NCBI GenBank assembly: GCA_034435435.1
Contig: DAOTXN010000147.1
Span: 1 to 44,704 of the forward strand
From: Anaerolineae bacterium
GTDB taxonomy: Bacteria; Chloroflexota; Anaerolineae; S140-20
Length of the DNA: 44,704 nt
Reading direction: 5' to 3'
Below, piece by piece: positions 1 through 28,270 of the stretch; position 1 is the stretch's first letter; each line of letters starts with the position of its first letter. A program made the position numbers and the translations under genes. The notes beneath the pieces were generated by a model. The model had not been told where the DNA came from. It saw nothing but the letters and a program-made list of their open reading frames with translations, and made no database searches.

Positions 1-1389
1 CAAAATGCCCTCACGTAGTTGGATCATGAACGACACAGCGAGATGCGTTACGACGCCAAGCCCGCATTACTTTCTGCTTGGGTGGCGATGCACAGCGGCG
101 CGGTATGGCTTTGCGCTCGACCTTACTCTCAACTGGCAGCAATGCCACGGCGGCGCCGAGCGCTGGAGGGGGATCTCCTTCCAAAGGCGTGATCACAGGA
201 TACAAGCGCTCGAGCCTGATACGCGCATCGTCGGTAGTGAATTGCCAGTTCACCGTGGTTGCGCTGGTGTTGCGAGCTTGGGTCCAGGCCAACACTTGTC
301 TTTCCAGAATCTGCCGTGTCCCAATGCGTCGATCCAAACACTGGCGGCTGAGCACGCTCAACTCGGTCTCGGCCATATTCAACCAACTACCGTGTTTGGG
401 GGTGTAGTGAATTTCCAACTTGTTCAGAATGCGTTGAGCCTCGGCCGGTGGAAAGGCTTCGTACAGCGCGCCCCCGACGTGGGTGTTCAGATTGTCCATC
501 ACCAGCACGACCTTCTCGGCATCCGGGAACAATACGTCCACGATGTCCCGCACCAGATAAGCCCAGTCCTTGCGTGTGCGCCGCTTCGTGACACGGGTCC
601 AACGTTGGCCCAGCAGCGGGGCAAAAACCATAAAGATGTTGGCAACCCCCTCGCGTTTGTACTCGTAGTCGTGGCATTCTGTCTGTCCAGGCTTCAGTGG
701 CAGCGGAATTCGCGTCTCCGAGACCAGTTGATAGGGCATTTCGTCCATGCATACCAGCGGTCGCTTGGGATCCAAGGGTCTACGATAGACTTCCAGGATG
801 TCTTCCATGTGGCAAACGAACTCGCCGTTTTGCCCCGGCGGAATGCACCATTCCTTCTTGAGCCAGGGTTTGAGTTCATTCGCCTTCAACGTTTGGCGCA
901 CGGTCTCGTAAGAAATCGGTTCGTCAAATATCGCCAACTCGACCGCCTTGTCCGCCAGCAGACGCAACGACCAGCGAGCGTAACCCTCTGGCGCAGGCCC
1001 ACACAGCATCGCGATCAAGCGCGCCTCGCATTCGCCATCGATTCTACGTCGACGATGATTCCGCGTCGAATGCCCATGCAGGGCTATCTCGAAGCTCTCC
1101 AGCACAAACCGCTCCCGAATATTCGCCACTGTGCTCACATTAACTTCCAACGCTTCGCTGATTTTTGCATCCGTCCAAGCCGGAGCATCGGGACTACTGT
1201 CTGCCTTCAACATGATCCGCGCATGGACCAGTTTGCGCGCCGCCGCCTTGCCTTTCGCCAACATCGCTTCCAATCGTACACGCTCTTCCTCGGTCAACGT
1301 GATAACAGACTTTTTCATAGCTCTGGGCCCCCTTTGGAGTGCGTTGTTCTCGCATCCTTAAGGGTACCCCAGATTTTGTCACAGGGAAA
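1..1389 (-). mobile_element. IS630-family insertion sequence, possibly truncated by the window edge, inserted immediately upstream of the PglZ gene
   Basis: The transposase gene occupies almost the whole interval. Only 71 bp separate the transposase start (1318) from the PglZ start (1390). Terminal inverted repeats could not be verified because one end lies outside the window. Confidence 0.4.
11..1318 (-). CDS. IS630/Tc1-mariner family DDE transposase (N-terminal HTH + DDE_3 core). The ORF runs without a stop to the window edge, so the true 3' end is uncertain.
   Basis: Translation has an N-terminal HTH region (EERVRLEAMLAKGK...VSTVANIRERF). The DDE core tail VLVMDNLNTHVGGALYEAF...LEIHYTPKHGSWLNMAETELSVLSRQCL is characteristic of IS630 transposases. 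The long + strand ORF 5..1393 is its antisense shadow. Confidence 0.75.
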   Translation of the reverse strand: MKKSVITLTEEERVRLEAMLAKGKAAARKLVHARIMLKADSSPDAPAWTDAKISEALEVNVSTVANIRERFVLESFEIALHGHSTRNHRRRRIDGECEARLIAMLCGPAPEGYARWSLRLLADKAVELAIFDEPISYETVRQTLKANELKPWLKKEWCIPPGQNGEFVCHMEDILEVYRRPLDPKRPLVCMDEMPYQLVSETRIPLPLKPGQTECHDYEYKREGVANIFMVFAPLLGQRWTRVTKRRTRKDWAYLVRDIVDVLFPDAEKVVLVMDNLNTHVGGALYEAFPPAEAQRILNKLEIHYTPKHGSWLNMAETELSVLSRQCLDRRIGTRQILERQVLAWTQARNTSATTVNWQFTTDDARIRLERLYPVITPLEGDPPPALGAAVALLPVESKVERKAIPRRCASPPKQKVMRAWRRNASRCVVHDPTT

Positions 1390-3204
1390 ATGAATCTTGA
1401 CAGACCACTAGAGCATGACCCAGCCGCCCTGGCCCGCAAACTGGCGCAGGTGAAAATCTTGGCAGGTTACCCGCCCACAGTGGGCCAACGCATCCTCGGC
1501 CCAGAGTACGGCCATCTGGCTGCTCTAAACCTCGACCTCAGCAGCCTGCCGGTCCGCGAAACCGAGTTAGCCGGTGCTGTAGACCAGATCCGCGTTCATC
1601 TGAAGACCCTGGCGGAGACCCTGCTACCGTCCGAGGCGTTGCCCACAGCCCTCGCTCAAGTCAGCGGTCACCTGGTGGCCGAATTTGAAACGCTCCAATC
1701 ACTTCTGAAATCCAGCGCGGCTGTCGTTGTGGACGCCGACCTCGTGCAGCGGGTCCGTCACAAGTTCACCCCCATTCGCGACCAGTTGGAGCAAGAACTG
1801 GCCGACCTGGATTTGCTGATCACACCGTTACGCCCACCCAGGCCAAATCCTGATGGAAGCTGGGCTGCCGATAACTGGCTGGAGTGGGCCGTCAAGCACT
1901 ACTTGCCCTATCGGTTCTGGCTGGAAGAGATTGGCCGTCACGACCACGAGATCGCCGTCCAGGCCGACGCCTTTGCCGAATGGCTCTACGATCACTACCC
2001 AATGCTGCAGTTAACCTATCCTCGAATGGTCTATCGGGGCCTGTTAGCCCTACGGGATCGGCTCACCGGTCCTGCTCCAGTCCTGGTGGCTGTGGTGGAC
2101 AACCTCAACTACAAGTTCTTCCCCGATCTGGTGCGTTATCTCCAGACCCAGGGCTTCTTTAGCCAAGAGACCATTCCTCACCTGGCGATGCTCCCCTCTT
2201 GCACTGAGGTGAGCAAAAAGTGCCTGTTCATCGGCCAGCCAGAGCCTTTCCCTGGCACTGCCTATGAAAAGCCGACGCTCGCGGCTTGGGAACACACTCT
2301 AAAAGGGCGACGGATTCGCTACTTGCCTCATGTTGGCGCACTGCGCTCGGTCAAGCGACGGGAACACGATGTCTACTTTTTGAACTACTTGCCGGTAGAC
2401 GAAGCATTACACGACGACGAGCAACAAACCGGTGTGTTCTACAGCGCCGCCGTCCGCCAGCGGTTGCGGGCGCTGACCCAAGACATCCGGGCGTTCGCTG
2501 AGCGGATCGGCGCCGAGGGTGATCTGGTTCTGGTCGTCGTCTCGGATCACGGCGCGACTCGCATTGCTGCTGAGGCGCCCAACGCCATTGATCGCCAATT
2601 CTACGCCGGTAGAGTGAAGGACAGGCATCACCGCTATGTGACCATAGACGATAAGCAACTCGCTGCTCTGCCGGACAATGTGCGCTTCGAGTGCTACGTC
2701 TTTGAGCGGGAACGCTTCGGTTTGCCGACCCATTATCTGGCCGCCCGCAGCACCTACCGTTTCGCTGACCCGGGCGAAGGCATCTATGTCCACGGCGGAT
2801 TGTCGCCTGAGGAGACCATCGTGCCCCTGGCCGTCTTTACGCCGGTTGCCGTCGCCTCCAGGCCGCTGACGATCCGCCTGCTGGCCGACGAGTTCCGCTA
2901 TGGCGTAAAATCGCTCCTGCGTTTAGAACTGGTCAATCCCAACCGCTATGGTTGCCAAGATGTGCACGTGGAGGTGCTCAACGCCAACGTCGAGGCGACT
3001 CCTGTTTTGCTGGGCGGCCTGGATGCACTGAGTCAGGCCGAGGTCTCAAGCGAGGTACGTTTCCGTCGCATGCCTGGCGAGATGACGGCTCTGCAAGTGC
3101 GGATGACCTACCAGTTCCTGGGCAAGTCGCACAGCCAGGTGGCGGAACTGCCGATCACGCTAAAACGGTTGATGACCACGACCTTCGACCTGGACGACCT
3201 GTAA
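1390..3204 (+). CDS. PglZ-domain protein (alkaline-phosphatase superfamily), 604 aa
   Basis: Carries the conserved PglZ/alkaline phosphatase motifs LVLVVVSDHGATR and YVHGGLSPEETIVPL (SDHG and HGG..E). Probable ATG at 1390 (MNLDRPLEHD) inside the longer ORF 1339..3204. Gap of only 30-50 bp to the downstream ATPase gene. Confidence 0.6.
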   Translation: MNLDRPLEHDPAALARKLAQVKILAGYPPTVGQRILGPEYGHLAALNLDLSSLPVRETELAGAVDQIRVHLKTLAETLLPSEALPTALAQVSGHLVAEFETLQSLLKSSAAVVVDADLVQRVRHKFTPIRDQLEQELADLDLLITPLRPPRPNPDGSWAADNWLEWAVKHYLPYRFWLEEIGRHDHEIAVQADAFAEWLYDHYPMLQLTYPRMVYRGLLALRDRLTGPAPVLVAVVDNLNYKFFPDLVRYLQTQGFFSQETIPHLAMLPSCTEVSKKCLFIGQPEPFPGTAYEKPTLAAWEHTLKGRRIRYLPHVGALRSVKRREHDVYFLNYLPVDEALHDDEQQTGVFYSAAVRQRLRALTQDIRAFAERIGAEGDLVLVVVSDHGATRIAAEAPNAIDRQFYAGRVKDRHHRYVTIDDKQLAALPDNVRFECYVFERERFGLPTHYLAARSTYRFADPGEGIYVHGGLSPEETIVPLAVFTPVAVASRPLTIRLLADEFRYGVKSLLRLELVNPNRYGCQDVHVEVLNANVEATPVLLGGLDALSQAEVSSEVRFRRMPGEMTALQVRMTYQFLGKSHSQVAELPITLKRLMTTTFDLDDL

Positions 3205-3255
3205 CCTGTTCTCGTCACTTGCCCACTTGCAAACTTGCCTGCATGGAGAGAGTCG

Positions 3256-4668
3256 ATGGAAACCTTTGAACAAAAGGCCCTGGACCATTACGGTGAAGTC
3301 ATCATCAACAAGCATCTGATCCACGAGGCTGGTTTTGGCGCACGAGCCATCCCCACCTACGTCGGCGAGTGGATCCTCTCGGCCTACGCCCAAGATGGCG
3401 AGCTGACCGAAACCAGCCGGGAAAAGATCGCCGCCTTTTTGAGCAAGTACCTGCCCACCAAAGGCCAGAAGGATGAGATCAAGAACCGTCTGCTCAAGAT
3501 GGAGACCGTACGTTTGCTAGACGATTTCAGTGTGGCCATCAACCTCAAGACCGGCGAGCGGCTGCTGCGCGTCCCCTTGCTCGACATCAACGATGCCCAA
3601 GTTAGCGGTCAAATTGTGGATCACAACGAGTTGCTGGTCACTAGTGGCGTGTGGGGCATTGGCGATTTGTTCTACGTGCCGCCGGAAGGTTCCCGAGAGC
3701 GCGGTCAGGTCTGGATGCGCGAATTCCGCCCCTTTCAGGTCAGCAGCATTGATCTGGCATACTTTCAGGACTGCCGGCGGCACTTTACACTGGACGAGTG
3801 GCTGGACCTGATGGTCTCCAGCATGGGTTTCAATCCGGGCGCGCTGGCCGAGCTCCAAAAGATCATCCTCATCACCCGTATCATCCCCCTGGCTCAGCCT
3901 CGGGTGAACCTGGTCGAGCTGGCCCCCAAAGGCACCGGCAAATCATTCGTCTACGACAACCTTTCCCGTTACGCCCGCGTCATCGGCGGCGGCAAGATTA
4001 CCCCGGCCGTGCTCTTTCATAACCTGGCCTCGCACACTCCCGGCCTGATCACCCGCTACGACGCAATCGTCCTGGATGAAGTACAGAGTATTCGAGGCGA
4101 CAGCGCCGGCGAGCTTGTCGCCGGGCTTAAGGTCTATCTGGAAGCGGGCCGTTACAGTCGCGGTCGCACGATGGGCACGGCTGAAGCCAGCTTTGTCATG
4201 TTGGGCAACATTACCCTGGACGAGAACAAGCGCCCACTCTACTCAGACGCCGGACTATTCCGTGAGATCCCCAACTTTTTGCAAGAGACCGCCTTCCTGG
4301 ACCGTATTCACGGTTTGGTAGCAGGGTGGGAGATGGGCCGGGTGACCAAAGACACACCATCGCGCAGCCTGGGTTTCAAAGGCGACTTTTTCTCAGAGGT
4401 TCTACACGCGCTCCGTCGTGAAGCCCAATACGACGAGTTCGTCTCGCAAGAGATGCGTCTGGTCGGCTGTGACGACCTGCGTGACCGAAAAGCTATCGCC
4501 CGTCTGGCAGCCGGTTTCCTCAAGCTGCTCTTCCCCGATTCAAAGCCAGCCCCGGAAGAGTTCCGCGAATTTTGCATTCGGCCTGCCGTTGCGCTGCGCC
4601 AGCGAGTGAGGGACGAGCTGCACCGCATGGACCCCGAATACGCTCAAGTGGAGATCGGCGTGGCGTAA
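3256..4668 (+). CDS. BrxL-like AAA+ ATPase (Lon-associated ATPase domain without the Lon protease domain). Partner of the PglZ protein (TIGR02687/TIGR02688-type gene pair).
   Basis: Walker A LAPKGTGKSFVYDNL and Walker B AIVLDEVQSI. Overall resemblance to the N-terminal ATPase region of BREX BrxL. The ATG at 3256 (METFEQKAL) is preceded by GGAGAG. The protein ends well short of where a Lon protease domain would be. Confidence 0.5.
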   Translation: METFEQKALDHYGEVIINKHLIHEAGFGARAIPTYVGEWILSAYAQDGELTETSREKIAAFLSKYLPTKGQKDEIKNRLLKMETVRLLDDFSVAINLKTGERLLRVPLLDINDAQVSGQIVDHNELLVTSGVWGIGDLFYVPPEGSRERGQVWMREFRPFQVSSIDLAYFQDCRRHFTLDEWLDLMVSSMGFNPGALAELQKIILITRIIPLAQPRVNLVELAPKGTGKSFVYDNLSRYARVIGGGKITPAVLFHNLASHTPGLITRYDAIVLDEVQSIRGDSAGELVAGLKVYLEAGRYSRGRTMGTAEASFVMLGNITLDENKRPLYSDAGLFREIPNFLQETAFLDRIHGLVAGWEMGRVTKDTPSRSLGFKGDFFSEVLHALRREAQYDEFVSQEMRLVGCDDLRDRKAIARLAAGFLKLLFPDSKPAPEEFREFCIRPAVALRQRVRDELHRMDPEYAQVEIGVA

Positions 4669-4801
4669 ATGCCGTCGTCGGCTGTGACGTTTTTGTCATA
4701 TAGGGATCATATTAGACTCGGTCCGACAGTGCTATGATAGAGGCGTGTTCGGCGACCTGCGAGCACCCCATCACGTCCGTCTTTAATCGCACCGAGGCGA
4801 T

Positions 4802-7108
4802 GTGTTGAGCGACCAAACGGACAACAACTATCGGATTAACGAACCCGTCATCGCCCAAGTGGAACAAGTCTTCCCCTTTGGCGTCTTTGCTCGCCTGCCC
4901 AACGGCGCCCGGGCTTACGTGCGTAAGCGAGAGCTCACCTTGACGGGTAATGTGGACCCCCGTCAGGTAGTCTCAGAAGGCGAGCACATCAAGGCCGTCG
5001 TGATTGCGCTGGCTCAAGCCGAGCGGAACCTCGAGCTGAGCGTTCGTCAGGCCGAGCCAGACCCGTGGGATACAGTTGCGCGCTCGCTCAGCGTTCGATA
5101 TACCGTCATCGCTACGGTGAAGAAGCTGTCAACCCGAGGCGTTCTGGTCCAGGTTGTCCCCGGTGTGGACGGCTTTATCCCTTTGGCCGAGCTGGCGCCC
5201 TGGTCTGTAGAAAAGCCCGATGATCTATTGTGGCCTGGCGATCACGTGGAAGCGATGATCACACATCTCGATCTCCCGGTCAGACGCCTGCGGCTCAGCA
5301 TCCGCCAACAAATGAAACACGCGGCCCAGGTCAGGGAAATGGTAGCGTTCTTGAGGGAGAAGGAAAAGGCGGAGGAAAAACTGCCCGCCGAGGTTACTGA
5401 CGAGTCGTTTACCAGGGAAGAGTTTGCATCTCTTGAAGTGGGAGTTGAAAGTGTGGCCCCGGATATCGCCGAGCGGCTGGGACGAATTTTGATCGTAGAA
5501 GACCACGAGGATGTTCGCGAACCGCTGGTCGCGTGGCTGCGCCGATTGGGTTTTTCGACCGAGGGCGTCACGTCGCCGGCAGAGGCATTGGCTTGCTTGC
5601 AAGAAGGCAATTGTGGGCTGGCCTTGATTGATCTGGATCTGTCTGGCGAGGATGGTTTGAATCTCACTCGGACCATCGCTCAAGGGACCTCAGACACACA
5701 ACTGGCAGTGATGAGTTCTCCTGAGTGGATTGCGCAGCGGCTATCAGAATTGACCGCGCTGCGGGTGGTGGCAGTCTTTGTCAAGCCGTTGGATTTGAGC
5801 GAGATTCTCGAGACACTCATCCAGGTGGGTCAAGGCGAGACCCCCGATCCGCTTAGACCGGCGGCACCGAAACTGGATGAAGAGAAGAGCCTGGACTCAC
5901 ACCAGCAATTAGCTGAGACCATGCGCAGCGGCCTGCCACTGCAGGCACGATTCCGGGCCGGCCTGGAAGAGCTGGTGCACACGTCCCGTGCTGAGGAGGG
6001 TTTAGTCTTTCAGCTCGACCCGCATTCACAGCAGGTGACCATCGTGGCCCAGGCCGGGGATCTCGCGTTGAATCGAGCGGCGCTTTATATGCTGGTCGAG
6101 AGCCCGGTCAAGGATGTGATCCAAGAGCGGGATGCGGTGTTTGAGACACACGTTTCCCGTCAGGCCGCAGCTCGTTTCAGCAAATTGCTAGACTTGCTGC
6201 CTTTTGAATCCTGCCTGGGAGTACCTATCCCGGCCGGCGGTGAGGTGCACCACGCTCTTTTTTTGTTCCATCGCCAGCCGGACGCTTTCTCTCGCTATCG
6301 CGTGCGAGATGCGCAGGCCATGGCGATGTTGTTCAGTGTAGCCCTGGAGGGCCAGGCACTGGAAGAGCGTATTCGGGCAGTCAGTCCCTTTTTGTTGAGC
6401 GGTCAACTGGCGACGGGGTTCAGCCACGAAGTATACAACAAGATGCTCGGCCTAGAGCTGCAGATCCGCAACCTGCGGGCCGATTGCGAGCGTTTGCAGT
6501 TGGGAACGGCGTCTATTGACTCCCTCGCGCCACACCAGGCGCTCGATCAACTCTTGACTGCGGCTCTCGATTTGAAGGACGCAGCGACCCTCTTTCAAAA
6601 ATTAGTCCGGTCCGAACAGGAAGAGAGAGTGGACGTGAACGGGGTGATCCAGCGAGCCAATCAGTTGCTGCACCCCATCGCCCGCCGACACCAGGTCAAG
6701 ATCGAAACCGCGTTGATGCCGGACCTGCCCCCTATCCTTGGCAGCGCCATTCGTCTGCAACAGGTGTTCTTGAACGTGATGCTGAACGCCGTCCAGCACA
6801 TAGCCCCCAAGGTGAAACGTTGGTCTGAAACTCGGGGGTTATTGCGCATCATCACGACCCTGGAGCCGGAAAAGGAACGTCCCATTCAGGTGCGCTTTGC
6901 CGACAATGGACCAGGCATCCACCACCGTTCGTGGGAAAGTATCTTTGGCCTGGGCTTTTCCACCCGACCAGGAGGGACCGGCCTGGGATTGTTCATCGCC
7001 AGGAGTCTGGTCGAGTCCGTGGGAGGGGCGATTTGCGTAGAACAGAGCCTGATCCCAACCGGCACAATCTTTCGGGTCGAATTGCCGGCAGCGACGGGCA
7101 AGGCGTGA
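4802..7108 (+). CDS. Hybrid sensor histidine kinase with two N-terminal S1 RNA-binding domains, a receiver (REC), a GAF-like region, HisKA and HATPase_c
   Basis: S1-like OB folds: VIAQVEQVFPFGVFARLPNGARAYVRKRELT and YTVIATVKKLSTRGVLVQVVPGVDGFIPLAEL. REC: RILIVEDHEDVREPLVAWLRRLGF...ALIDLDLSGEDGLNL. H-box: GFSHEVYNKMLGLELQIRNLR. ATP lid: DNGPGIHHRSWESIFGLGFSTRPGGTGLGLFIARSLVE. Confidence 0.7.
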   Translation: MLSDQTDNNYRINEPVIAQVEQVFPFGVFARLPNGARAYVRKRELTLTGNVDPRQVVSEGEHIKAVVIALAQAERNLELSVRQAEPDPWDTVARSLSVRYTVIATVKKLSTRGVLVQVVPGVDGFIPLAELAPWSVEKPDDLLWPGDHVEAMITHLDLPVRRLRLSIRQQMKHAAQVREMVAFLREKEKAEEKLPAEVTDESFTREEFASLEVGVESVAPDIAERLGRILIVEDHEDVREPLVAWLRRLGFSTEGVTSPAEALACLQEGNCGLALIDLDLSGEDGLNLTRTIAQGTSDTQLAVMSSPEWIAQRLSELTALRVVAVFVKPLDLSEILETLIQVGQGETPDPLRPAAPKLDEEKSLDSHQQLAETMRSGLPLQARFRAGLEELVHTSRAEEGLVFQLDPHSQQVTIVAQAGDLALNRAALYMLVESPVKDVIQERDAVFETHVSRQAAARFSKLLDLLPFESCLGVPIPAGGEVHHALFLFHRQPDAFSRYRVRDAQAMAMLFSVALEGQALEERIRAVSPFLLSGQLATGFSHEVYNKMLGLELQIRNLRADCERLQLGTASIDSLAPHQALDQLLTAALDLKDAATLFQKLVRSEQEERVDVNGVIQRANQLLHPIARRHQVKIETALMPDLPPILGSAIRLQQVFLNVMLNAVQHIAPKVKRWSETRGLLRIITTLEPEKERPIQVRFADNGPGIHHRSWESIFGLGFSTRPGGTGLGLFIARSLVESVGGAICVEQSLIPTGTIFRVELPAATGKA

Positions 7109-7128
7109 ACGGTGAGGAGCGATGAGCG

Positions 7129-10100
7129 ATGAGCGATGAGCGGCTACGGGTTTTACTGATAGACGATGAAAAAAGCTTGCGAGAACCCCTGGAAAAGTTC
7201 CTGGAAGGCAATTTCGGCTACTGGGTGGACGCTGTCGCCAGCGGTGAGGAGGGGCTGCGTCAGGTACAAGAGGCTCACGGTCAGTATGATGTCGCCTTGA
7301 TTGACGAGGTCCTTTTGGAAGGGCCGGATGGCATTGAAACCATGCAGCAGATCAAGGCGCTTTATCCCAACGTAGAAGTCATCATATTCACCGGCTGGGG
7401 GCCAGAATCTAAACAACGGGCGATCCGGGCCGGCGCCTTTCGGTATTTGGAAAAGCCTGTTAACAACGACGAACTGGCCATGCTCATCCGCACGGCGGCG
7501 CAACAGGTGCGCCTGCGCGACATTGGCAGGGCCATTCTGGCAGAACGAGAGCCTGATCAAGTGCTCGCAAGCATTGGCAGAGCTGCCTGCTCCCTGGCTC
7601 TGGCTGACGATGCAGCCATTGTGCTTTTGGATCCGGCTACGGGAAAGTTGAGAGTTTATTCCAATACCTATGCGGCTGAGCAGCAATGGCAAAAACATTT
7701 CCAAGATCAGAATCTCTCCAGGGAGATCATCCGTACCGGCCAGGTCGTACAGGTCCCAGATACAGCGCAGGACGAGCGAGTAAACCCGCAGGTAGCGCAG
7801 ACCGGTATCCGTTCCTTTGTGGGGTTGCCCATTCCCGGCGAAGGCGGGAACCTGGGCGCGCTCTATGTTTATAGCCAGAAACCGATGCGGTTTGAAGAGT
7901 GGGGAACCGTCGCCGTGCTGCAAACCCTGGCCGGACAGGCCGGGTTGGCCATTACCAATGCTCAAGCTTTTCACCAGGTCCGCGCTCACGCCTGCTATAT
8001 GGAGGCCCTGGTGCAGGCCGGACAAGGGTTGACCAAAGCCACACACTTGGAGGAGCAGCTCGCATTGGCGTGGGGCTTTGTGCGCGAGCAGTTGGAGGTG
8101 TCTACCTTTTTCGTGGGTTTGTTTGACCGAGAAGCAGACGTTTTGACTTTCCCGCTGGCTTATGACGAGGGCCAGCCGATTGAGATTCCTGAGCGAATTC
8201 TGGGTGGTGATCCCAAGGAATGGGGTGCTGCCGGTTATGTGGTCAAGACCGGGCAGGAATTGTATTGGCCCACACAGGAAAGTAGCAAGGCGCACTGCCT
8301 TTCTTTGGGTATTAAAGGTATTCAAATCGGCAAGCCGTGCCAGTCCTGCTTTTATCTGCCTCTGAAGGCAGGTAATCAGGTTACGGGAGTGGTATCCATT
8401 CAAAGTTACAGCTCCTATGCCTTTACCCCCATCCTGTTGGATGCCTGCCGGGCTTTGGGGAGCCAGTTGAGCGAGGCTCTGGAGAACAGGCGGTTGTTTT
8501 CCGAACTGGTGGAGACCAAGGAGTGGCGAGAGGCCCTGATCGAGAACGCCTTTGACGCGGTGGTTGCCATTGACCGAAACAAGCGGATTACCGTGTTTAA
8601 TCAGCGGGCGGAAGAGATGTTTGGCCGGACAGCCGAGGAGATGAGTGGCCGGACAGTGGCTCGACTGCACGTGGATGTAAGCAAGGCACAAGAAATCTTT
8701 GATATAGTGGACAAAGAAGGAGCGATTTCAGGCTGGAAAGTAGAATTGAAGCACCGCGATGATACCCCTATCCCGGCCTTGCTCTCTGCCACCCTGATAA
8801 GAGACAGCGGCGGTCGTCCCATCGGACAGGCTGGTTTTATGCGCGACTTGCGCAAAGTCAATCTGTTGGAGGAACGACAGCAAGCTCTGATGCAGGTAAG
8901 CCAAACGATCACCAGTACGTTAGAATTGGATACAGTTCTAGAACGGGTCATACAGGCCGCGGTCGCGGCTTTCCCGGCGGCCCAGGCAGGAGCCATTCAT
9001 CTCTACGATGAGCGGAGTGGTGACTTGTGTTTGCGAGCCAACACATTTGGCTATAGTCCTTCAGCCGCCGAAGCGCTGTGCTTCAAGGCCGGCGAAGGCA
9101 TTGCCGGCTGGGTGTTCCAAAACCGGCAGCCAGCGGTGGTAGACGATGCCTTCCAAGATCCCCGCTACAAGTGGATTGAGCATCCAGAGGTGTCAGCCCA
9201 CCGGTCTATGGTCTGTGTACCACTTGAGGTGAGAGGCCAAGTGATCGGCGCTTTATCCTTGAACACGGTGGATAGTGCGGGTGTCTTTCACGCCGATGAT
9301 CTGGGCTTGCTGACCACGTTCGCCGATCAAGCAGCGATTGCCATTGACAACGCCCGCCGGATGCATGAATTGGAGCAAATGCGCCGGGCCGCAGAGGCAA
9401 TGGCGCGAGTTTTTGAACCCCCCCAGGCCTTGCAGCAGATTGCCAGGAGCGCCAGACAGGTTCTCGAAGCTGACTCTTCGGCCATCTGGTCTTATGATCA
9501 AGTCCTGGATCAGTTTATCCCGGAAGAACTGGTAGCTGTTGGAATTCCACCTGATGAACTGGAACGCTTTAGGCAAGAGGAGCCCAAGCCCGGTCGTACC
9601 GCGGACACGGTGATGCAAAGAGGTTACATCGCAGTGCAGGACATCTCGCAGCCTGAGTACGAATTCTTGGGTCAACCCACGCGCCGGTTATTAAATCGCA
9701 TCGGTGTACGATGTTTTCAGGGGATTGCGTTGCGAGTCGGGGAAGAAAGTCTGGGCGTACTGTATGTAAACTATAAACATACGAAAACCTTGGGCGAGGA
9801 GGAAGAAGCCACTCTCAGAACGTTCGCCAGTCACGCGGCCCTGGCCCTGAAAAACGCCCGTCTCCTGACCCAAATGGAACGAACAAGAAGGGCAACCGAG
9901 GTCATCGCCCGGGTCACAGTGCAGGAGGACCTGCATCATACGCTCACCACCATCGCTCAACACACACGCCGGGTTTTGAGTAGCGATGCCGTCAATATCT
10001 ACGAGTTTGATGAAGATGCGGGTCAATTCGGCGAATGGACAGCAGAGATCGTGGATGCTCGCGATCCTGGCTCCGTGCGACCAGCGGACCAGTTGACACG

Positions 10101-11628
10101 CGAGTCTGTAGTCTGGAGTATCTTGAATCTGGATGGCCCTGATTTCTACACTCTGGCAGAGGATCGCGTCTCGCAACATGAGCTGCTCGGTGGTCATTTT
10201 GTGACTGTGGAAGAAATCCGAGCTGCCATCGGCCTTCAACTGCGCGCGGGGGGGCGTCGGCTCGGGGTGATGTTCGTCAACTTTCGTTCGCCGCATCGCT
10301 TCACCTTCGACGAGATTGCCACTATTCAACTCTTTGCAGATCAGGCGGCGGTAGCGATTTGGAACGCCCGTCTGTTCCAGGCGGAACAGCGGCGAGTCGA
10401 AGAGCTTTCCGGGCTACACACGATCTCCCAGGCTATCGGTTCACTGACCGACATCCAGGAAGTCTATCAGCGGGTGAATGAGAGCATGGCAATGCTGATT
10501 GGCGCAGAGATGTGTGCAGTTCTACTTTACGACGAGGCTGAGAAAACGCTTGTTTGCCAACTACCGATGTACGGCGTGCCTGAAGAGATCGGCAAACAGT
10601 ACCGCATTCCTGTAGACGAGGGGGAAGCTGCAGCTATTTGGATGGTGGACGATCATCTAATCCTCAACGATGTTGGCCAGTCTCCTCTGGTGGCCGAACT
10701 AGGATTAGGTGAGCTTGTCCAGGAAGCCGGTCTGCGCGATACCTTGCTGGTCAAGTTGACAGTGGGAAACCGAGATATTGGAATCGTTCAAGCCTCAAAC
10801 AAGTTGAACGGAACTGTTTTCACACGTGATGACGCCCGGTTGCTGCGCATCTTTGCCAACCAGGCCGCAGCAGTCATAGAAAATGCGGGGTTGTACGAGG
10901 ACTTGAAAAAAACCAGAGGGCTTGTAGAGGCAAGGACTGTCCTCGCCTGGATGGGAATGGATAGTAGCTCTTCGCGCCATGCCATCAATAATCATGCCCG
11001 AACTATTCGAGAACAAATCCAATTGTTGCACGGGGATTTGAAAAAGGTACGTATGGTAAAACAACGCTCCAGAGTAGCCGATCGACTTTCGATGATAGAG
11101 CGACTCGCAACCAAAATCCTGGAGAAACCGATTACCCCTCCACTGTCAACGGAAGAAGGCATGGACTTGGTGCCCGTCAACGCATTGATCGGCGAACGCG
11201 CCAGACAACTGTGGCAAAGTGATCCCTATAAGAGAGTAACACTTCGGTTGGATCTGTGTTTGGCTGACACCGCTACCGTGTGGGCAAGCCCTGAATGGCT
11301 GCGGAGAGCGTTTGACATTCTGGTCGACAACGCTGTGGATGCCGTCGCTGATTGTGAGAAAAAAGAGGTCACTATCGGTACTCGCATGGCTGGTGGAGGA
11401 GTAGAAATCTTTGTATCAGACACCGGTCCAGGAATTCCTCAAGAGATACAAGCTCGAATCGGTCTGAGGTTGATCAAGCCGGAAGATGCAAAAGGTCTAG
11501 GTATGGGTCTTTTAATAGCCCAGGCCATTGCCCAGACTTACGGGGGTGAAATCCGGGTGCTGTCCTCCAGCCCTTCAGGTGCCACTGTCGCCATCTGGTT
11601 GCCGCCTAGAGTAATAGCCCCAGAATGA
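7129..11628 (+). CDS. Giant (1499 aa) hybrid sensor histidine kinase: N-terminal REC, multiple GAF domains, a PAS domain, and C-terminal HisKA/HATPase
   Basis: REC: RVLLIDDEKSLREPLEKFLEG...VALIDEVLLEGPDGIE. PAS: ENAFDAVVAIDRNKRITVFNQRAEEMFGRTAEEMSGRTVARLH. Repeated GAF-like blocks (e.g. GIAGWVFQNRQPAVVDDAFQDPRY). ATP-binding: VSDTGPGIPQEIQARIG...GLGMGLLIAQAIAQTYGGEIRV. Start codon lies in a GATGAGC x3 tandem repeat. Confidence 0.75.
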   Translation: MSDERLRVLLIDDEKSLREPLEKFLEGNFGYWVDAVASGEEGLRQVQEAHGQYDVALIDEVLLEGPDGIETMQQIKALYPNVEVIIFTGWGPESKQRAIRAGAFRYLEKPVNNDELAMLIRTAAQQVRLRDIGRAILAEREPDQVLASIGRAACSLALADDAAIVLLDPATGKLRVYSNTYAAEQQWQKHFQDQNLSREIIRTGQVVQVPDTAQDERVNPQVAQTGIRSFVGLPIPGEGGNLGALYVYSQKPMRFEEWGTVAVLQTLAGQAGLAITNAQAFHQVRAHACYMEALVQAGQGLTKATHLEEQLALAWGFVREQLEVSTFFVGLFDREADVLTFPLAYDEGQPIEIPERILGGDPKEWGAAGYVVKTGQELYWPTQESSKAHCLSLGIKGIQIGKPCQSCFYLPLKAGNQVTGVVSIQSYSSYAFTPILLDACRALGSQLSEALENRRLFSELVETKEWREALIENAFDAVVAIDRNKRITVFNQRAEEMFGRTAEEMSGRTVARLHVDVSKAQEIFDIVDKEGAISGWKVELKHRDDTPIPALLSATLIRDSGGRPIGQAGFMRDLRKVNLLEERQQALMQVSQTITSTLELDTVLERVIQAAVAAFPAAQAGAIHLYDERSGDLCLRANTFGYSPSAAEALCFKAGEGIAGWVFQNRQPAVVDDAFQDPRYKWIEHPEVSAHRSMVCVPLEVRGQVIGALSLNTVDSAGVFHADDLGLLTTFADQAAIAIDNARRMHELEQMRRAAEAMARVFEPPQALQQIARSARQVLEADSSAIWSYDQVLDQFIPEELVAVGIPPDELERFRQEEPKPGRTADTVMQRGYIAVQDISQPEYEFLGQPTRRLLNRIGVRCFQGIALRVGEESLGVLYVNYKHTKTLGEEEEATLRTFASHAALALKNARLLTQMERTRRATEVIARVTVQEDLHHTLTTIAQHTRRVLSSDAVNIYEFDEDAGQFGEWTAEIVDARDPGSVRPADQLTRESVVWSILNLDGPDFYTLAEDRVSQHELLGGHFVTVEEIRAAIGLQLRAGGRRLGVMFVNFRSPHRFTFDEIATIQLFADQAAVAIWNARLFQAEQRRVEELSGLHTISQAIGSLTDIQEVYQRVNESMAMLIGAEMCAVLLYDEAEKTLVCQLPMYGVPEEIGKQYRIPVDEGEAAAIWMVDDHLILNDVGQSPLVAELGLGELVQEAGLRDTLLVKLTVGNRDIGIVQASNKLNGTVFTRDDARLLRIFANQAAAVIENAGLYEDLKKTRGLVEARTVLAWMGMDSSSSRHAINNHARTIREQIQLLHGDLKKVRMVKQRSRVADRLSMIERLATKILEKPITPPLSTEEGMDLVPVNALIGERARQLWQSDPYKRVTLRLDLCLADTATVWASPEWLRRAFDILVDNAVDAVADCEKKEVTIGTRMAGGGVEIFVSDTGPGIPQEIQARIGLRLIKPEDAKGLGMGLLIAQAIAQTYGGEIRVLSSSPSGATVAIWLPPRVIAPE

Positions 11629-12020
11629 GGGTGATAATAGTGAGCAAATCCTTCCTGCTAGTCAGCGAGAGATCAGATACACACTGGCCCCTCGTTTTGC
11701 GCCAGGCGTTGACCCCTCTCGGGAAATTGCACATCGTGTCAGAAGAAAAGGCGTTACAAATAGTGGCTCAGAGCTATTACGACGCAATCATAGTCGATGC
11801 AGGAGCAGTCACTGATGCAATTGCAATAGTCTCGCGCTTGCGTGCGCAACAGTCTAAAGCGCGTATCATCGTCGCCACCGCGTCTCCCACCTGGACAAGG
11901 GCACGAGAGGCCCTGCACGCAGGTGCAGTTGATTATGTCCGTAAATCATTGGATGAAAAAGAGCTTCGTTCTGCAATCGAAGCGGTGTTGGAGCTTCCAC
12001 TACCGCCGGCGCAACATTGA
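11625..12020 (+). CDS. Degenerate (pseudo-)receiver domain protein, 131 aa
   Basis: REC-like fold with the phospho-acceptor Asp context (YDAIIVDAG), T (IIVATAS) and K (VDYVRKS). It lacks the N-terminal acidic pair (RVIIVSKSF instead of ..DD..). ATGA overlap with the upstream kinase gene. Confidence 0.5.
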   Translation: MRVIIVSKSFLLVSERSDTHWPLVLRQALTPLGKLHIVSEEKALQIVAQSYYDAIIVDAGAVTDAIAIVSRLRAQQSKARIIVATASPTWTRAREALHAGAVDYVRKSLDEKELRSAIEAVLELPLPPAQH

Positions 12021-12034
12021 AATGGAGATGGCAG

Positions 12035-12733
12035 ATGGCGACAGCAACTCTTCTTTTCGCTGACAATGACCCAGATTTCCTCAAAACCCGATCCGAGTTT
12101 CTTGAGCAAGAGGGCTATCAAGTGATCCAGGCGGGCAATCCTGCTGAAGCGCGAAGACTGCTCGAAAAAGGTGGGATAGACCTGGCAATTTTGGACATCC
12201 GGCTGCGGGACGATGACGACGAAAAAGACACCAGTGGTCTCACCCTGGCAAATGAAGTGACTCCTTCGATACCTAAGATCATTCTGACGAGTTTTCCGTC
12301 CGTAGATGCAGTGCGTGAAGCGCTGAGACCTCAATCAGGTGGTTTGTCACTGACTGTGGACTTTGTCAGCAAGAATGAGGGACCAGAGGCATTAATTGCC
12401 GCCGTCAAACGCGCCATAGCCGTACATGTTGACAAGCGACCTAAGCAAGTCGTTTTGAACCTATCGGAGCAGTTGGAGAAAGATTATGAGGAAGCCCGAA
12501 AGCAAGCGATTTTTACTCACCGTGCCAGGCTTGTCCTGATGGTGGTCGGTAGCATAGTTATCATTGGCGGCGTCGTAGGGGTGTTGTTGGGGCAAGCTAC
12601 GGCTGGTGCTTTGGGTACAGTGTCGGGCGTGCTGATAGAAGCATTGGCTGCTCTGTTCTCGAAATTCTCGGAAGAAGCCAATAAGCGGATGGACAAATAC
12701 CACAGAGAGTTGCTCAAACTCTATATGGACTAA
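12035..12733 (+). CDS. Response-regulator receiver domain protein with a C-terminal transmembrane helix and coiled-coil tail
   Basis: REC: LLFADNDPDFLKTRSEFLEQEGYQVIQAGNPAEARRLLEKGGIDLAILDIRLRDDDDEKDTSGLTLANEV. Hydrophobic segment LVLMVVGSIVIIGGVVGVLLG. An alternative TTG start at 12017 would overlap the previous gene's stop. Confidence 0.6.
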   Translation: MATATLLFADNDPDFLKTRSEFLEQEGYQVIQAGNPAEARRLLEKGGIDLAILDIRLRDDDDEKDTSGLTLANEVTPSIPKIILTSFPSVDAVREALRPQSGGLSLTVDFVSKNEGPEALIAAVKRAIAVHVDKRPKQVVLNLSEQLEKDYEEARKQAIFTHRARLVLMVVGSIVIIGGVVGVLLGQATAGALGTVSGVLIEALAALFSKFSEEANKRMDKYHRELLKLYMD

Positions 12734-12765
12734 AAGTGATCCGTCAGAACAATAAAGGGGGAAAT

Positions 12766-14730
12766 ATGTTTGGGGGCCAAGTGTTATTTGTTGACAACGA
12801 TCCCGATTTTCTCGACACCCGCGCCGAGTTCCTGGAAAACGCTGGTTATCGGGTAATGAAAGCATATACACTGGAACAGGCCCGACAGTTGCTGGCAGAT
12901 GCTCGCGTCCATCTAATCATTCTGGACATTCGTATGGTGAATGAAGATGATGAGAAAGACACCAGTGGCCTCACTTTGGCCAAGGATCCGGCTTATCGTC
13001 CGCTGCCCAAGATCATTCTCACCGGCTATCCTAGCTATAAGTATGTGAGAGAAGTCCTGGGGCCTGCACTGGAAGGCTTACCACCCGCAGTGGATTTCCT
13101 GGCCAAAGACGAGGGTCCTGGGGCTATGATTCAGGCCGCAGCGCGCGCCTTTGCCCAGCATGTTCGCCTCAACTGGGACCTGCACATCAACTGGGACCCT
13201 CGAGAACATCTGTCGTTTCTGCACCTGGTCAGCCCGCTCCAACCCGACCTGCCCAATGATACCCTGCTTCAGCGGGCCGACGAGCTGGAAGACCTCTTCC
13301 GGCGCTTGTTCTACGATTACCAGCAGATTCGCATTGGCCGGCTGCTGTGGCACGATCAGGAGCGTTTTTGCCTGCAAGTCCTGGCCCAGTCCTCCCAGGG
13401 AGCGACTGATTCCCGCATCTTGGTTTGTGGGGGACAGGGCTGTGTAGAACGCGATTTGAAACAGGTGCGGGAACTGGCGCCCGAATCGGCCCAGGGGACA
13501 AAACTGGACAGCACAGCCGAGACTATGCATTTCGCGGCGGCGGCTTTTACGCTTCTCGGCGCTGAACTGGAAATCGTGCAGCCACTACGGGACTTGTTTC
13601 AGCATGCTCAGGAACGCCCTCTCAGAACTGCCTTTGACCACTTGCTAAAAGATGTCCTGTTGGCCTGGCATCAGCGTGGGCAAATGGTTGAGCAGCGGCG
13701 CGACCTGATGACACTCTATCGTCTTCAGGTAGGGTTGGAGGAAAATGGCTTTCCTCACGCAGAGGTGGAGCGTCGGGTAGAGGCTCTGATCCAGATGGTG
13801 CGCCCCTTGAGCGCCGTGGAGATCGAGCGCGGCGATGGAGTGGTTACCTTTCACTTCCCCAACCAGCCGCCGCTAGTCTGCCCGGACCCCGTGGCGGCTG
13901 CCTACGCGCACCTGGCAAGCTATGACAAACCGATTGTGTGCAAGGTTTCGCCCGGTCAGCTCACGGCTGACAATGTGCTGGTGGACGCGAAGCAACGAGT
14001 CTGGCTGACTGATTTTCGCCACTCGGGTCAGGTCCCCCAGTGGTGGAATTTTGTCTGCCTGGAGGCGATGGTCCGTTTTGACCTGAGTCAGGCTCCCGAC
14101 TTGTTGGCCTGGCAAGAGTTTGAGGAGTGTCTGGTTACGCCGACCCAACTCCACGACCGGCTGCAGATACAAGATGTCATCAGCGATCTGCGCTCGAACT
14201 TGGTTTTGATTGAGCAAATCCGACGTCAGGCAGGAAGCGAAGCGGGACCTGATCCATTACCCTATTATGCTGGTCTGTTGATATGGACTGTGGGGGCCAT
14301 TGCGGATCACGATCCGTCAGTTCTCTATACCCAGGCCGAACGCATGCGCGGTGCCCAACTGCTTCTGGCGGCTGCCGTGCTTACACAAAGGTTGGGTAAG
14401 ACTTTTTCCGCACATCAAGCAGGCCAGAGACTGCGCCTGGAAGGCGATGGCGCTGTGTGGATTGGGGATCGGTGCGTCGGTGAGTTGGGCGGGCAAGAGT
14501 TGGAACTACTCCGTTGCCTGTATGAACGGACCAACCAACCGGTGACTCGCGAGGTGATTGTAAAATCGGCGTTCAAAGAACCTTACAGGATAGGTGATGA
14601 CCAGATGGAAAGCCGCATCAATTCGCTGGTCAGGCGACTGCGAGTTAAGATTGAGCCTGACCCGAACCGACCGCGCTACGTTGTCACAGTCAGGGGAAAG
14701 GGGCTTCGCTTGGAGACGGAAGGCAAGTAA
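12766..14730 (+). CDS. Response regulator with an N-terminal REC, a central protein-kinase-like/aminoglycoside-phosphotransferase-like domain and a C-terminal OmpR/PhoB-type winged-helix DNA-binding domain
   Basis: REC is a paralog of the previous gene's REC (VLFVDNDPDFLDTRAEFLENAGYRVM...LIILDIRMVNEDDEKDTSGLTLAKD). Central motif LTADNVLVDAKQRVWLTDFRHSG resembles a kinase catalytic loop plus DFG. C-terminal LELLRCLYERTNQPVTREVIVKSAF...RINSLVRRLRVKIEPDPNRPRYVVTVRGKGLRL matches trans_reg_C. ATG 12766 is preceded by AAGGGGGAA. Confidence 0.6.
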   Translation: MFGGQVLFVDNDPDFLDTRAEFLENAGYRVMKAYTLEQARQLLADARVHLIILDIRMVNEDDEKDTSGLTLAKDPAYRPLPKIILTGYPSYKYVREVLGPALEGLPPAVDFLAKDEGPGAMIQAAARAFAQHVRLNWDLHINWDPREHLSFLHLVSPLQPDLPNDTLLQRADELEDLFRRLFYDYQQIRIGRLLWHDQERFCLQVLAQSSQGATDSRILVCGGQGCVERDLKQVRELAPESAQGTKLDSTAETMHFAAAAFTLLGAELEIVQPLRDLFQHAQERPLRTAFDHLLKDVLLAWHQRGQMVEQRRDLMTLYRLQVGLEENGFPHAEVERRVEALIQMVRPLSAVEIERGDGVVTFHFPNQPPLVCPDPVAAAYAHLASYDKPIVCKVSPGQLTADNVLVDAKQRVWLTDFRHSGQVPQWWNFVCLEAMVRFDLSQAPDLLAWQEFEECLVTPTQLHDRLQIQDVISDLRSNLVLIEQIRRQAGSEAGPDPLPYYAGLLIWTVGAIADHDPSVLYTQAERMRGAQLLLAAAVLTQRLGKTFSAHQAGQRLRLEGDGAVWIGDRCVGELGGQELELLRCLYERTNQPVTREVIVKSAFKEPYRIGDDQMESRINSLVRRLRVKIEPDPNRPRYVVTVRGKGLRLETEGK

Positions 14731-17850: not shown

Positions 17851-18096
17851 CTACTCCCCAACAATCTTTTCCACCTCCCGCTGGAGCTCCCTATCCGACG
17901 GCGTCGTGTAGATGGTCGTCGTGTCCAACTTTTCGTGACCCAGGATAGCGGCTATCCGGTCCAGGCTCGCGCCGGCCTCGACCAGGTTGTGCCCACACGT
18001 GTGCCGCAGGAAGCCGTGCTTTCCTGGCATACCTGACGACCAGCTGATGCGCAGAGCGTGTCGACGGGCCGGTGCTTTCCTCACCATGTCCCGCAA
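17851..18096 (-). pseudogene. C-terminal fragment of a tyrosine recombinase (integrase remnant)
   Basis: The 81-aa ORF carries the catalytic C-terminal box LRHTCGHNLVEAGASLDRIAAILGHEKLDTTTIYT (R..H..H....Y) but no N-terminal or core domain. About 50% identical to the equivalent part of the adjacent intact integrase. Confidence 0.55.
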
Positions 18097-18130
18097 AAAG
18101 CCGGTCGCCTCATCGAGGATGGAGTGTTTT

Positions 18131-19027
18131 TCACTGCTCCGCCTTTTCCATCCGCGCGGCCAGGTCGTCGGTCGTCGGCTCCGTGTAGATCATCGTCGTC
18201 TCGATGGAAGCGTGCCCCAGAATGGCCGCGAGGTTGCGCAGATCGCCCGGGTTCTCGTCGAGATAGCGTTTGGCGAACGTGTGCCTCAAAACGTGAGCGC
18301 TGACCGCCTGCTCGTCCACGCGGGCCATTCGGGCGTACTTTTTCAACATCCGCCACACCCCCGACCGGGAGCGCAGCGGTCCCCGCTGGCCCACCCACAG
18401 CGGATCGTCCGCGCTCAGGTCTGGGTACACAGCCAAGTAAGCCCGTAACGCCCGGCGCACCGGCGGGGTGAGCGGTACCTCGCGATACACCTCATTCTTG
18501 CCCTTGCGCACCACCACCGCGCCATTGCGCTCCCCGGCGGCCACGTCACCCCGTTTCAGCTCGAGCAGTTCTTCCACGCGCAACCCCGCCCCCAAAAGCA
18601 GCTCGACCATGGCCGCATCCCGCGCGTCCCCGGCGGCGTGCACGTGTCGCAGCAGGCGGCGCACCTGGCCTTTGCCCAGCGCTTTGGGCTGGTGCTTGTC
18701 CCGGCGCACTCCCTTGACCTCGGCGGTGGGATCGTTGCGCAGGTGACCTTTGGCCGTGGCCCACCGATAGAAACGCGAGAGGGCCACCAGGCGTTGGTTG
18801 ATGGTGGCCGGTTTGGCGTGCTCGACGCTTTGTTGGTGGGCCTTCCAGTCGTGAACGTCGCGGGGGATGATGAGGGCCGGGTCGAAGGGCTGGCCGTAGG
18901 TCTGCCGATTACAGCGAGCAAAGTGCCGCAGCGCGCGGGCATAACCGGCCAGGGTGTGCGGGCTTTTGCCATCGCGTTCCAGGTGGGCGAGCCATTCTCC
19001 GACGAGTGCATGGGAGGTGTGGGGCAT
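18131..19027 (-). CDS. Tyrosine site-specific recombinase/integrase (XerC/XerD-like), 298 aa
   Basis: N-terminal SAM-like domain (GEWLAHLERDGKSPHTLAGYARALRHF). Catalytic residues: R (LRVEELLELK), HxxR (LRHTFAKRY), GH and Y (LGHASIETTMIYTE). Confidence 0.8.
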   Translation of the reverse strand: MPHTSHALVGEWLAHLERDGKSPHTLAGYARALRHFARCNRQTYGQPFDPALIIPRDVHDWKAHQQSVEHAKPATINQRLVALSRFYRWATAKGHLRNDPTAEVKGVRRDKHQPKALGKGQVRRLLRHVHAAGDARDAAMVELLLGAGLRVEELLELKRGDVAAGERNGAVVVRKGKNEVYREVPLTPPVRRALRAYLAVYPDLSADDPLWVGQRGPLRSRSGVWRMLKKYARMARVDEQAVSAHVLRHTFAKRYLDENPGDLRNLAAILGHASIETTMIYTEPTTDDLAARMEKAEQ

Positions 19028-19478
19028 CGCTTTTTGTCCTCCAGATGCTTATGTTGCCGGATTTTCAGGCGTTAGGCGTGCCAATCAGAGCCAAAACCTG
19101 CCTTGATTATAGTACTTATGTCAAGTCGCGTCAACACAATACCCGTTATGGTGCGTGATTATGGTGACAGCTTTTGCGGCCCACATTTTGCTCACCGGGC
19201 GCGGGCATGATATAATCCCTCGACAGAGAAGCAAAGGAGCGCCGACGCTCAGGCTTTTCGCACAGCCAACAAACGATCACCAACACCGCGGTCAGGCAGG
19301 TCTTTTTTGGTCATCGTGACGACCGCATCCTTTTTGTCGGATGCGGCGCTCTCCTGTGCGTTTGGTCTGGTCCGGCGCTCTCAGGGTGCAAAGAGCTTGT
19401 GTGTGCTCTTGCACACTACATTATAACATAGACACTGGATCGTGGCAAGTGCCTCGCAGAAAACCGGTCCCCGAAGAT

Positions 19479-20606: not shown

Positions 20607-20613
20607 GGGCAGC

Positions 20614-20646
20614 GGCAGGGAGTTGGCCTTCCGTCAACTCCCTGCC
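20614..20646 (+). terminator. Hairpin GGCAGGGAGTTG-gccttccgt-CAACTCCCTGCC directly after the NYN gene stop
   Basis: 12-bp perfect stem seen in the sequence. Separates the NYN gene from the Ubl-E2-E1 operon. Confidence 0.45.
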
Positions 20647-28269: not shown

Positions 28270-28270
28270 T

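Follow-up and report, generated by a model that had tools for sequence, protein, structure and literature searches.

The stretch analysed here, called the window, is the whole 44,704-nt contig DAOTXN010000147.1 of a metagenome-assembled genome from an Anaerolineae bacterium (GCA_034435435.1). One end of the window carries an IS630-family insertion sequence (IS), the pglZ gene that it interrupts, and a complete brxL gene, the latter two occupying positions 1390–4668 on the plus strand and encoding homologues of components of bacteriophage exclusion (BREX) systems. The features of this end are as follows.

1–1408, minus strand: IS630-family IS, incomplete at the contig start, delimited by profile matches and by alignment with other copies
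11–1318, minus strand: transposase open reading frame (ORF), 435 aa
1319–1408: 5′ untranslated region and terminal inverted repeat of the IS, outermost bases ...CTTGACAGACCAC
1409–1410: TA dinucleotide of the CTAG target (the IS630-type duplicated target), where pglZ sequence restarts
1390–3204, plus strand: chimeric, 5′-truncated pglZ; called ORF of 604 aa beginning at ATG 1390
1390–1407, plus strand: IS-derived codons 1–6 of the called ORF, MNLDRP
1408 to the stop codon, plus strand: pglZ residues 188–784, comprising part of the helical region, the phosphodiesterase core, and the C-terminal β-sandwich
3256–4668, plus strand: brxL, short form, 470 aa, with an N-terminal DNA-binding region and an AAA+ ATPase; full length and intact
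4673–4699, plus strand: terminator-like hairpin and T-run directly after brxL, from a consensus scan only

An IS630-family element inside pglZ

The minus-strand ORF matches the IS630 transposase model NF033545 (transpos_IS630) at 205 bits against a cut-off of 100, along with Pfam DDE_3 and the N-terminal helix-turn-helix HTH_32. Measuring 435 aa, the transposase is longer than most of its relatives (~376–388 aa), and this long form is common to the closest copies, L077 and L082. The IS ends were set by comparison with other copies and not by an inverted-repeat search. Alignment of the reverse complement of positions 1289–1470 with the transposase-proximal ends of metagenomic IS relatives (alignments A2 and A3; L077, L078, L081–L083) revealed base 1408 as the exact end of IS similarity, with CTAG next in every aligned copy; the same boundary is seen in six other copies. 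Complete copies (L077, L078, L081, and L082) span ~1.38–1.45 kb and possess inverted repeats at both ends, each beside C-TA-G. Their second repeat is positioned ~49 nt past the transposase stop, which places the contig start ~40–50 nt inside the far end of the window's IS, a typical repeat-induced assembly break. That second end lies off the contig, and an inverted-repeat search of positions 1–1500 could for this reason not place the IS ends; the other IS terminal repeat, read inward, would be ...GTGGTCTGTCAAG. No second copy of the IS was found in the window or in the BREX-like loci described below. The element resembles IS630/Tc1-mariner transposons in its DDE_3 transposase with an N-terminal helix-turn-helix, its terminal inverted repeats, and its insertion at TA within CTAG, and shows nothing unusual.

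From position 1409 onward, the window aligns with the pglZ DNA of L011, L001, and L006. The CTA codon at 1408–1410 corresponds to Leu188 of P0002, the closest relative (784 aa), and the pglZ frame is regained there; the first base of this codon, C, completes the CTAG target. The IS boundary at 1408 and the Leu188 alignment together place the IS630-family element at a CTAG in pglZ, where it separates codon 187 from codon 188, so that the first six codons of the called ORF are IS-derived and 187 N-terminal codons are displaced. The terminal repeat of the IS bears an outward-facing ATG (1390) and a perfect TTGACA (1397–1402). Gene callers give a 604-aa "PglZ", with the N-terminal peptide MNLDRPLEHDPAAL, because this ATG happens to lie in frame with pglZ codon 188. 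An earlier note on this DNA, made from the sequence alone, had placed an IS630 element 71 bp upstream of PglZ and considered that it might have parted the two genes from upstream BREX components. The family assignment stands and the idea of separation is essentially right, but the repeat extends to base 1408, 19 nt inside the called ORF, and the separation was thus understated, the IS being inside pglZ. The insertion looks recent, since neither the IS nor the pglZ remnant nor brxL contains a frameshift.

An assembly artefact, in which the IS was wrongly joined to the pglZ-brxL segment and the real genome retains an uninterrupted operon, has to be weighed here, as the contig starts inside a repeated element, repeats are typical mis-join sites, and the population may be heterogeneous. 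The junction is nevertheless base-exact for transposition, with a full terminal repeat, TA in CTAG, and pglZ back in frame. A k-mer chimera would moreover need sequence common to pglZ and the IS, and none is shared, leaving this explanation very improbable.

The truncated protein matches the Pfam PglZ profile (PF08665) at 31.2 bits, above the cut-off of 25, with only the first 55 profile positions covered. The SDHG and HGG..E motifs noted previously are located at 2542–2553 and 2791–2814 (HGGLSPEE), and are accompanied by DNLN within 2095–2115 and an LPSCTEVSK threonine loop at 2191–2217. These metal-binding and nucleophile columns (D-N, Thr loop, SDHG, and HGG..PEE) are invariant in alignment A1 and intact in the window copy. 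An AlphaFold2 model was made with alignment A1 for the full-length homologue P0002, not for the truncated window protein, and reached a mean predicted local distance difference test score of 87. It is composed of a β-α-β domain (residues 1–~90), a helical region (96–405), a phosphodiesterase core (411–665), and a C-terminal β-sandwich (674–772). Among PDB structures, this model matches the Acinetobacter BREX PglZ 9zn5_B best (E 1.5e-16), with PorX next (E ~1e-13), and its PglZ/PorX-like fold backs the weak Pfam match. The BREX-1 PglZ type A model TIGR02687 (cut-off 270.35 bits) gives 19.5 bits for the window protein and 21.4 bits for a full-length homologue, and the window protein falls far under the cut-off of every BREX type-specific PglZ model.

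Comparison with relatives defines the extent of the loss. Searching 5.8 billion proteins with the window PglZ yielded ~120 relatives of 781–841 aa, nearly all of 781–802 aa, with identity up to 77% and 99% of the window protein covered. An exhaustive HMMER (phmmer) scan of 1.84 billion cluster representatives gave 445 matches at E ≤ 1e-3, including 121 at E ≤ 1e-30, and every full-length match (~780–800 aa) pairs query residue ~7 with its own residue ~185–195. In the reciprocal tblastn comparison, P0002 aligns to the window over residues ~188–784 only, at 76% identity, and residues 1–187 find no match anywhere in the 44.7 kb. Mapped onto the P0002 model, the insertion is predicted to remove the N-terminal α/β domain in full together with about six helices, with the break inside helix 179–190. 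The PglZ of type I BREX is a metal-dependent nuclease/phosphodiesterase, and its residues 1–96 form the BrxB interface (PMC12205998), and the N-terminal PglZ domain has been described as an inactive Swi2/Snf2-like P-loop domain (Rakesh & Krishnan 2026; PMC12839542).

The in-frame junction could also be read as the birth of a new gene driven by the IS. The end of the IS would supply the start codon and perhaps transcription outward, and the product would be an N-terminally truncated PglZ nuclease that is freed from BrxB control and expressed with BrxL. The ATG at 1390, the outward TTGACA, and the intact catalytic core and β-sandwich agree with such a gene. The TTGACA, however, follows the ATG and lacks a matching −10 element, and a scan for the sigma-70 consensus, the only promoter type covered, found no promoter-like site in 1100–5000. 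AGGG lies only 2 nt from the ATG, a poor Shine-Dalgarno spacing. The modelled break within helix 179–190 would likely destabilise the helical region, and protein searches including the 445 cluster matches found no other truncated copies sharing this start. We regard this origin as highly unlikely.

The brxL gene downstream is preceded by GGAGAG ahead of ATG 3256, with an alternative TTG start at 3235. Its product contains Walker A (PKGTGKS, 3925–3945) and Walker B (IVLDEV, 4066–4083) motifs and matches BrxL_N (PF20442) and BrxL_ATPase (PF13337; E 5.6e-102), the latter as the earlier note had predicted, as well as PADLOC BrxL (396 bits). TIGR02688 matches at 445.5 bits against a cut-off of 329.3, spanning profile positions 3–449 of 449. 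The proposed TIGR02687/TIGR02688 pairing is therefore borne out for BrxL and fails for PglZ. The protein aligns to residues 10–458 of the 679-residue Acinetobacter BrxL structure 8EMC (E 2.6e-55) and ends before the Lon-like domain, in agreement with the initial description. The Lon-related BrxL model of BREX type 1, TIGR02653, reaches 259.6 bits against a cut-off of 628 and covers positions 4–462 of 675 only, and the window BrxL contains neither a Lon-like nor a PLD-like C-terminal domain. Orthologues in L006, L008, and L017 are of the same length, and type 4 BrxL is described without any C-terminal extension (PMC12839542). BREX type 4 and the family to which the window locus belongs both normally have a short BrxL, and the one found here is not, as had been entertained, a mis-call of a normal-length gene. 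BrxL forms a DNA-binding AAA+ ring (PMC10164562). The hairpin at 4673–4699 is the probable end of the operon, although terminator-like hairpins are no more numerous in the window than in shuffled sequence, making this weak evidence.

A six-gene operon in related loci

The family was examined in the contexts of exact homologues and in 48 further loci from GTDB species-representative genomes, with genes labelled by iterated hidden Markov models built from one complete locus. It is present mainly in Chloroflexota (Anaerolineae) and is scattered in other phyla, one archaeon, and a plasmid. Its usual gene order is a PglX-like N6-adenine methyltransferase, a DUF4007 protein, a ~160-aa P-loop protein, a ~1370-aa BrxC/SspC-like ATPase, the 784-aa PglZ, and BrxL. 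The genes upstream of pglZ recur as follows.

~1370-aa BrxC-like ATPase adjoining pglZ: 34 of 35 loci with an upstream flank of at least 1.5 kb
~160-aa P-loop protein: 20 of 24 loci with an upstream flank of at least 6 kb
~280-aa DUF4007 protein: 19 of 24 loci with an upstream flank of at least 6 kb
1100–1300-aa methyltransferase: 15 of 16 loci with an upstream flank of at least 9.9 kb

The methyltransferase gene is mostly first; in L051 and L058, it comes after the small P-loop gene and before the brxC-like gene. The brxL gene is 3′ of pglZ in almost every locus that reaches far enough downstream. On a complete Abditibacteriota plasmid (AP024153.1; L157, 88508–101158), the six genes directly adjoin or overlap one another, and every one of them carries the annotation "hypothetical protein". 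Pontibacillus salicampi NCAIM B.02529 likewise has an intact operon of this kind. An uninterrupted locus of the kind sought by the earlier note thus exists in related genomes, with a brxC-like gene and a PglX-like methyltransferase, but without matches to the models of DUF1819 BrxA or BrxB.

The individual components show graded similarity to known families. The large ATPase matches PADLOC SspC at 86 bits and PADLOC BrxC at 41 bits, and its similarity to the NCBIfam BrxC model is weak (21.6 bits against a cut-off of 400); a comparison of the BrxC-like protein with PDB sequences gave no match. The DUF4007 protein matches both Pfam DUF4007 and PADLOC SspB, and DUF4007 has been read as a BrxA-like three-part DNA-binding module (PMC12839542). 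Eco57I, MmeI_Mtase, and TaqI_C domains make up the methyltransferase, whose best NCBIfam match is BREX_1_MTaseX (BREX-1 PglX), at 81 bits against a cut-off of 500. The ~160-aa protein possesses partly degenerate Walker A/B motifs and matches no Pfam, NCBIfam, or PADLOC model, and its profile returns only generic P-loop matches and no BrxB among PDB sequences. Its position, size, and degenerate P-loop suggest that it may fill a BrxB-like role. Family BrxL proteins measure either ~470 aa or ~660–688 aa, the longer form including a C-terminal PLD-like (MIT_C) domain (e.g., L022 12335–14389 and L048 6792–8765).

This context bears on the proposal that the two window genes are a conserved stand-alone pair, an autonomous minimal module needing nothing of BREX beyond a PglZ phosphodiesterase and a BrxL ATPase. 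Both reading frames are open, their catalytic and Walker motifs are intact, and the two genes adjoin on one strand ahead of the terminator-like hairpin. Set against this arrangement, the window PglZ is a fragment of a ~784-aa protein, lacking 187 N-terminal residues relative to every full-length relative among the 445 cluster representatives, and its start codon lies within the IS terminal repeat. L018 is the sole locus of the 35 without an adjoining BrxC-like gene, and no locus is shown as a free-standing pair. Furthermore, type 4 brxZ and brxL alone are not a modification machinery, and a pair-only system is not described (PMC12914056, PMC12839542). Truncation and context largely refute the minimal module, which we consider very improbable.

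We instead interpret window 1390–4668 as the 3′ remnant of a six-gene BREX-like anti-phage operon with an IS630 element inside pglZ, and assign this interpretation a probability of roughly 85%. Only the IS, pglZ codons 188–784, and the intact brxL are held by the contig, because the assembly broke inside the repeated IS; no brxC-like gene is found within the window, which ends 1.4 kb upstream of the truncated pglZ. By analogy with characterised BREX systems, the methyltransferase of an intact system would mark host DNA at a short motif, and phage DNA lacking the mark would be kept from replicating by BrxC together with PglZ, as a metal-dependent phosphodiesterase/nuclease, and BrxL, as an AAA+ ATPase that forms a DNA-binding ring. 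The copy in this genome has most likely been inactivated or crippled. The window copy is probably inactive because the N-terminal partner-binding domain and the native translation start are lost, because the native promoter is lost and the scan predicts no sigma-70-like promoter from the IS to brxL, and because only the accidental in-frame ATG of the IS, with its poor Shine-Dalgarno spacing, remains.

Several points weigh against this interpretation. The contig ends in the IS, so the 5′ half of pglZ and the upstream genes, if still present, would lie outside the visible sequence, and a search with the lost N-terminal region, represented by 188 aa of the closest homologue, gave 12 fragments, none from the sources of the window (NCBI and Logan). 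Residual activity of the truncated PglZ together with BrxL is possible, as both ORFs are without frameshifts and keep their catalytic residues, and the promoter scan took in the sigma-70 consensus only. The contig is metagenome-assembled, so that only a fraction of the population may carry the insertion. The mechanism ascribed to the family is itself drawn from BREX types 1 and 4.

Individual loci depart from the usual arrangement or contain additional genes. In L010 1–10000 (ENA ERZ25039554 contig_4555), pglZ and brxL are intact and the upstream genes are broken up: six ORFs make up the BrxC-like gene, three the methyltransferase gene, and two the gene for DUF4007. This fragmentation reflects either decay or indel errors of long-read assembly. 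In L041 (6224–8583), pglZ is divided into two ORFs. Additional genes lie between the brxC-like gene and pglZ in two loci: a PIN-domain gene with two small upstream ORFs in L001 (9011–9968), a possible toxin-antitoxin module, and a caspase-like fragment with a 141-aa ORF in L005 (3715–4562). A TrlF-family protein combining PHP and an ABC-type ATPase (NF045780, 492 bits; related to the anti-phage protein Ppl) is encoded beside or inside the operon in L006 (1653–4382), in L019 (9761–12451), and at the upstream ends of L022, L025, and L010, and may be an accessory effector. Directly 3′ of brxL in L006 (13839–17733), a 249-aa protein and a 1052-aa DEAD-box helicase (PADLOC HamB, 176 bits) form a Hachiman-like pair, followed on the other strand by an SNF2-like helicase.

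Relation to BREX types 1 and 4 and to Ssp

BREX type 4 is reportedly part of the Goldfarb 2015 classification. Canonical type 4 loci were recovered by the same scan as distant loci L059–L076, with a ~780-aa BrxP (PAPS_reduct, Fer4, and DUF4007), BrxC, PglZ, and a short BrxL. Type 4 is described as a phosphorothioate-based brxP-brxC-pglZ-brxL system (Yuan et al. 2026, PMC12914056; Rakesh & Krishnan 2026, PMC12839542). The family has in common with it the brxC-pglZ-brxL order, a DUF4007 (SspB/BrxA-like) module, and a short BrxL, TIGR02688 scoring 445 bits for the window protein and 406 bits for that of canonical L060. The large ATPase of the family is likewise nearer to SspC/type-4-like BrxC models than to type 1 BrxC. 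The "Type 4 PglZ NTD Rep_2" set of Supplementary Data S3 (PMC12839542) holds Noviherbaspirillum soli (L061) and Chloroflexi proteins with N-termini resembling those of the family, and family-like PglZ proteins were probably counted under type 4 in that study.

The family differs from type 4 in its modification module, a ~1100–1300-aa PglX-like N6-adenine methyltransferase occupying the place of the PAPS-reductase (3′-phosphoadenosine 5′-phosphosulfate reductase) BrxP. A phmmer search with the N-terminal 520 aa of the L060 BrxP matched only L059–L076 and none of the family loci L001–L058. Unlike in type 4, DUF4007 forms a separate ~280-aa protein, and a separate ~160-aa P-loop protein is present. 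The family PglZ also fails the type 4 PglZ model NF033445 (cut-off 140 bits), which gives 279.6 bits for L060, 29.5 bits for the window PglZ, and 21.1 bits for the L006 homologue.

In composition, the family recalls BREX type 1 (brxA-brxB-brxC-pglX-pglZ-brxL), whose six roles all appear to be filled, by a DNA-binding BrxA-like protein, the small P-loop protein at the BrxB position, the large ATPase, an Eco57I/MmeI-type adenine methyltransferase, PglZ, and BrxL. Some family BrxL proteins bear a PLD/HKD-like domain fused at the C-terminus, as has been reported for type 1 (PMC12839542). At the level of predicted structure, the P0002 model best matches a type 1 PglZ, the Acinetobacter protein 9zn5_B. 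The gene order differs from that of type 1, however, with the methyltransferase first or between the small P-loop and brxC-like genes. DUF4007, and not DUF1819, is found in the BrxA position, and the small protein matches no BrxB (DUF1788) model. The type 1 NCBIfam models all score far below their cut-offs on family proteins: PglZ TIGR02687 at 19–21 of 270 bits, PglX at 81 of 500, BrxC at 22 of 400, and TIGR02653 at 260 of 628. A Lon-like domain occurs in none of the family members examined.

The family also overlaps with SspABCD, its DUF4007 protein matching the SspB models and its large ATPase the SspC models of PADLOC. Neither SspD nor a PAPS reductase was found (the SspA cysteine desulfurase was not searched for), and PglZ, BrxL, and the methyltransferase are present instead. 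The HerA/FtsK "BRC" system, composed of DUF4007, DUF6079, a STAND protein, and PglZ and reported from similar taxa (PMC12839542), was considered and rejected, as the family has BrxL and not HerA. The family PglZ also retains a helical region and a β-sandwich at the C-terminus, both said to be missing in BRC PglZ (the GNAT and TGT genes of BRC were not searched for).

Overall, the family resembles type 1 by composition, in its six roles and methylation, and type 4 by sequence affinity, and looks like a relative of BREX type 4 that carries a methyltransferase. In Fischerella, a cluster containing brxL, brxZ, sspB, and a methyltransferase gene has been reported, the methyltransferase being treated as possibly independent (PMC12914056). 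We found no explicit description of a methyltransferase-bearing type-4-like subtype in the open-access full-text literature. We tentatively suggest that the family could be an undescribed BREX subtype, with a core of DUF4007, SspC-like BrxC, PglZ, and short BrxL, a PglX-like methyltransferase replacing BrxP, and a separate P-loop protein. If so, the subtype would connect methylation-based BREX type 1 evolutionarily with the type 4/Ssp systems, which rely on phosphorothioation.

The window locus itself is an ordinary IS-disrupted defence operon, and its family is apparently an unnamed BREX variant. The call of a "604-aa PglZ-domain protein" could prompt the proposal of a minimal PglZ/BrxL system, where the gene is really an IS-truncated one using a start codon from the IS. 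The locus also illustrates how a mobile element can inactivate a costly defence system within a defence island. The family operon, missed by all type-specific BREX models, joins type 1 logic (methylation) to type 4 parts, and would offer a useful natural contrast for working out which BREX components are tied to a particular type of DNA mark and how modification modules came to be exchanged.

Surroundings in the window

Type III CRISPR-Cas genes occupy 26026–36426 on the minus strand and encode several RAMP proteins (one fused to a cold-shock domain), Cas10 palm-domain and Card1-like nuclease-domain proteins, and Cas6, with Cas1 located at the contig end (43359–44222, plus strand). No CRISPR array was detected in the window. 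The presence of these genes places the BREX-like remnant in a defence island. Further conflict and mobility genes are found at 12017–14730, 18131–19027 (minus strand), 21386–23104, and 39961–41277, a set that includes response regulators with a CyanoTRADDas_TM or TCAD9 domain, a tyrosine integrase, a JAB-ThiF (E1-like) fusion, and an NYN-domain protein.

Directly 3′ of brxL, positions 4802–11628 encode two very large hybrid sensor kinases. The first, of 768 aa, contains two S1 domains, a receiver, a GAF domain, and HATPase, and the second, of 1499 aa, contains a receiver, PAS, five GAF domains, and HATPase. Scans of the window for Rfam families and tRNAs gave no matches. The G+C content rises to 63–71% at 18000–25000 and 40000–44704, compared with 50–59% elsewhere in the contig, and these stretches could be horizontally acquired segments or parts of a mosaic island.

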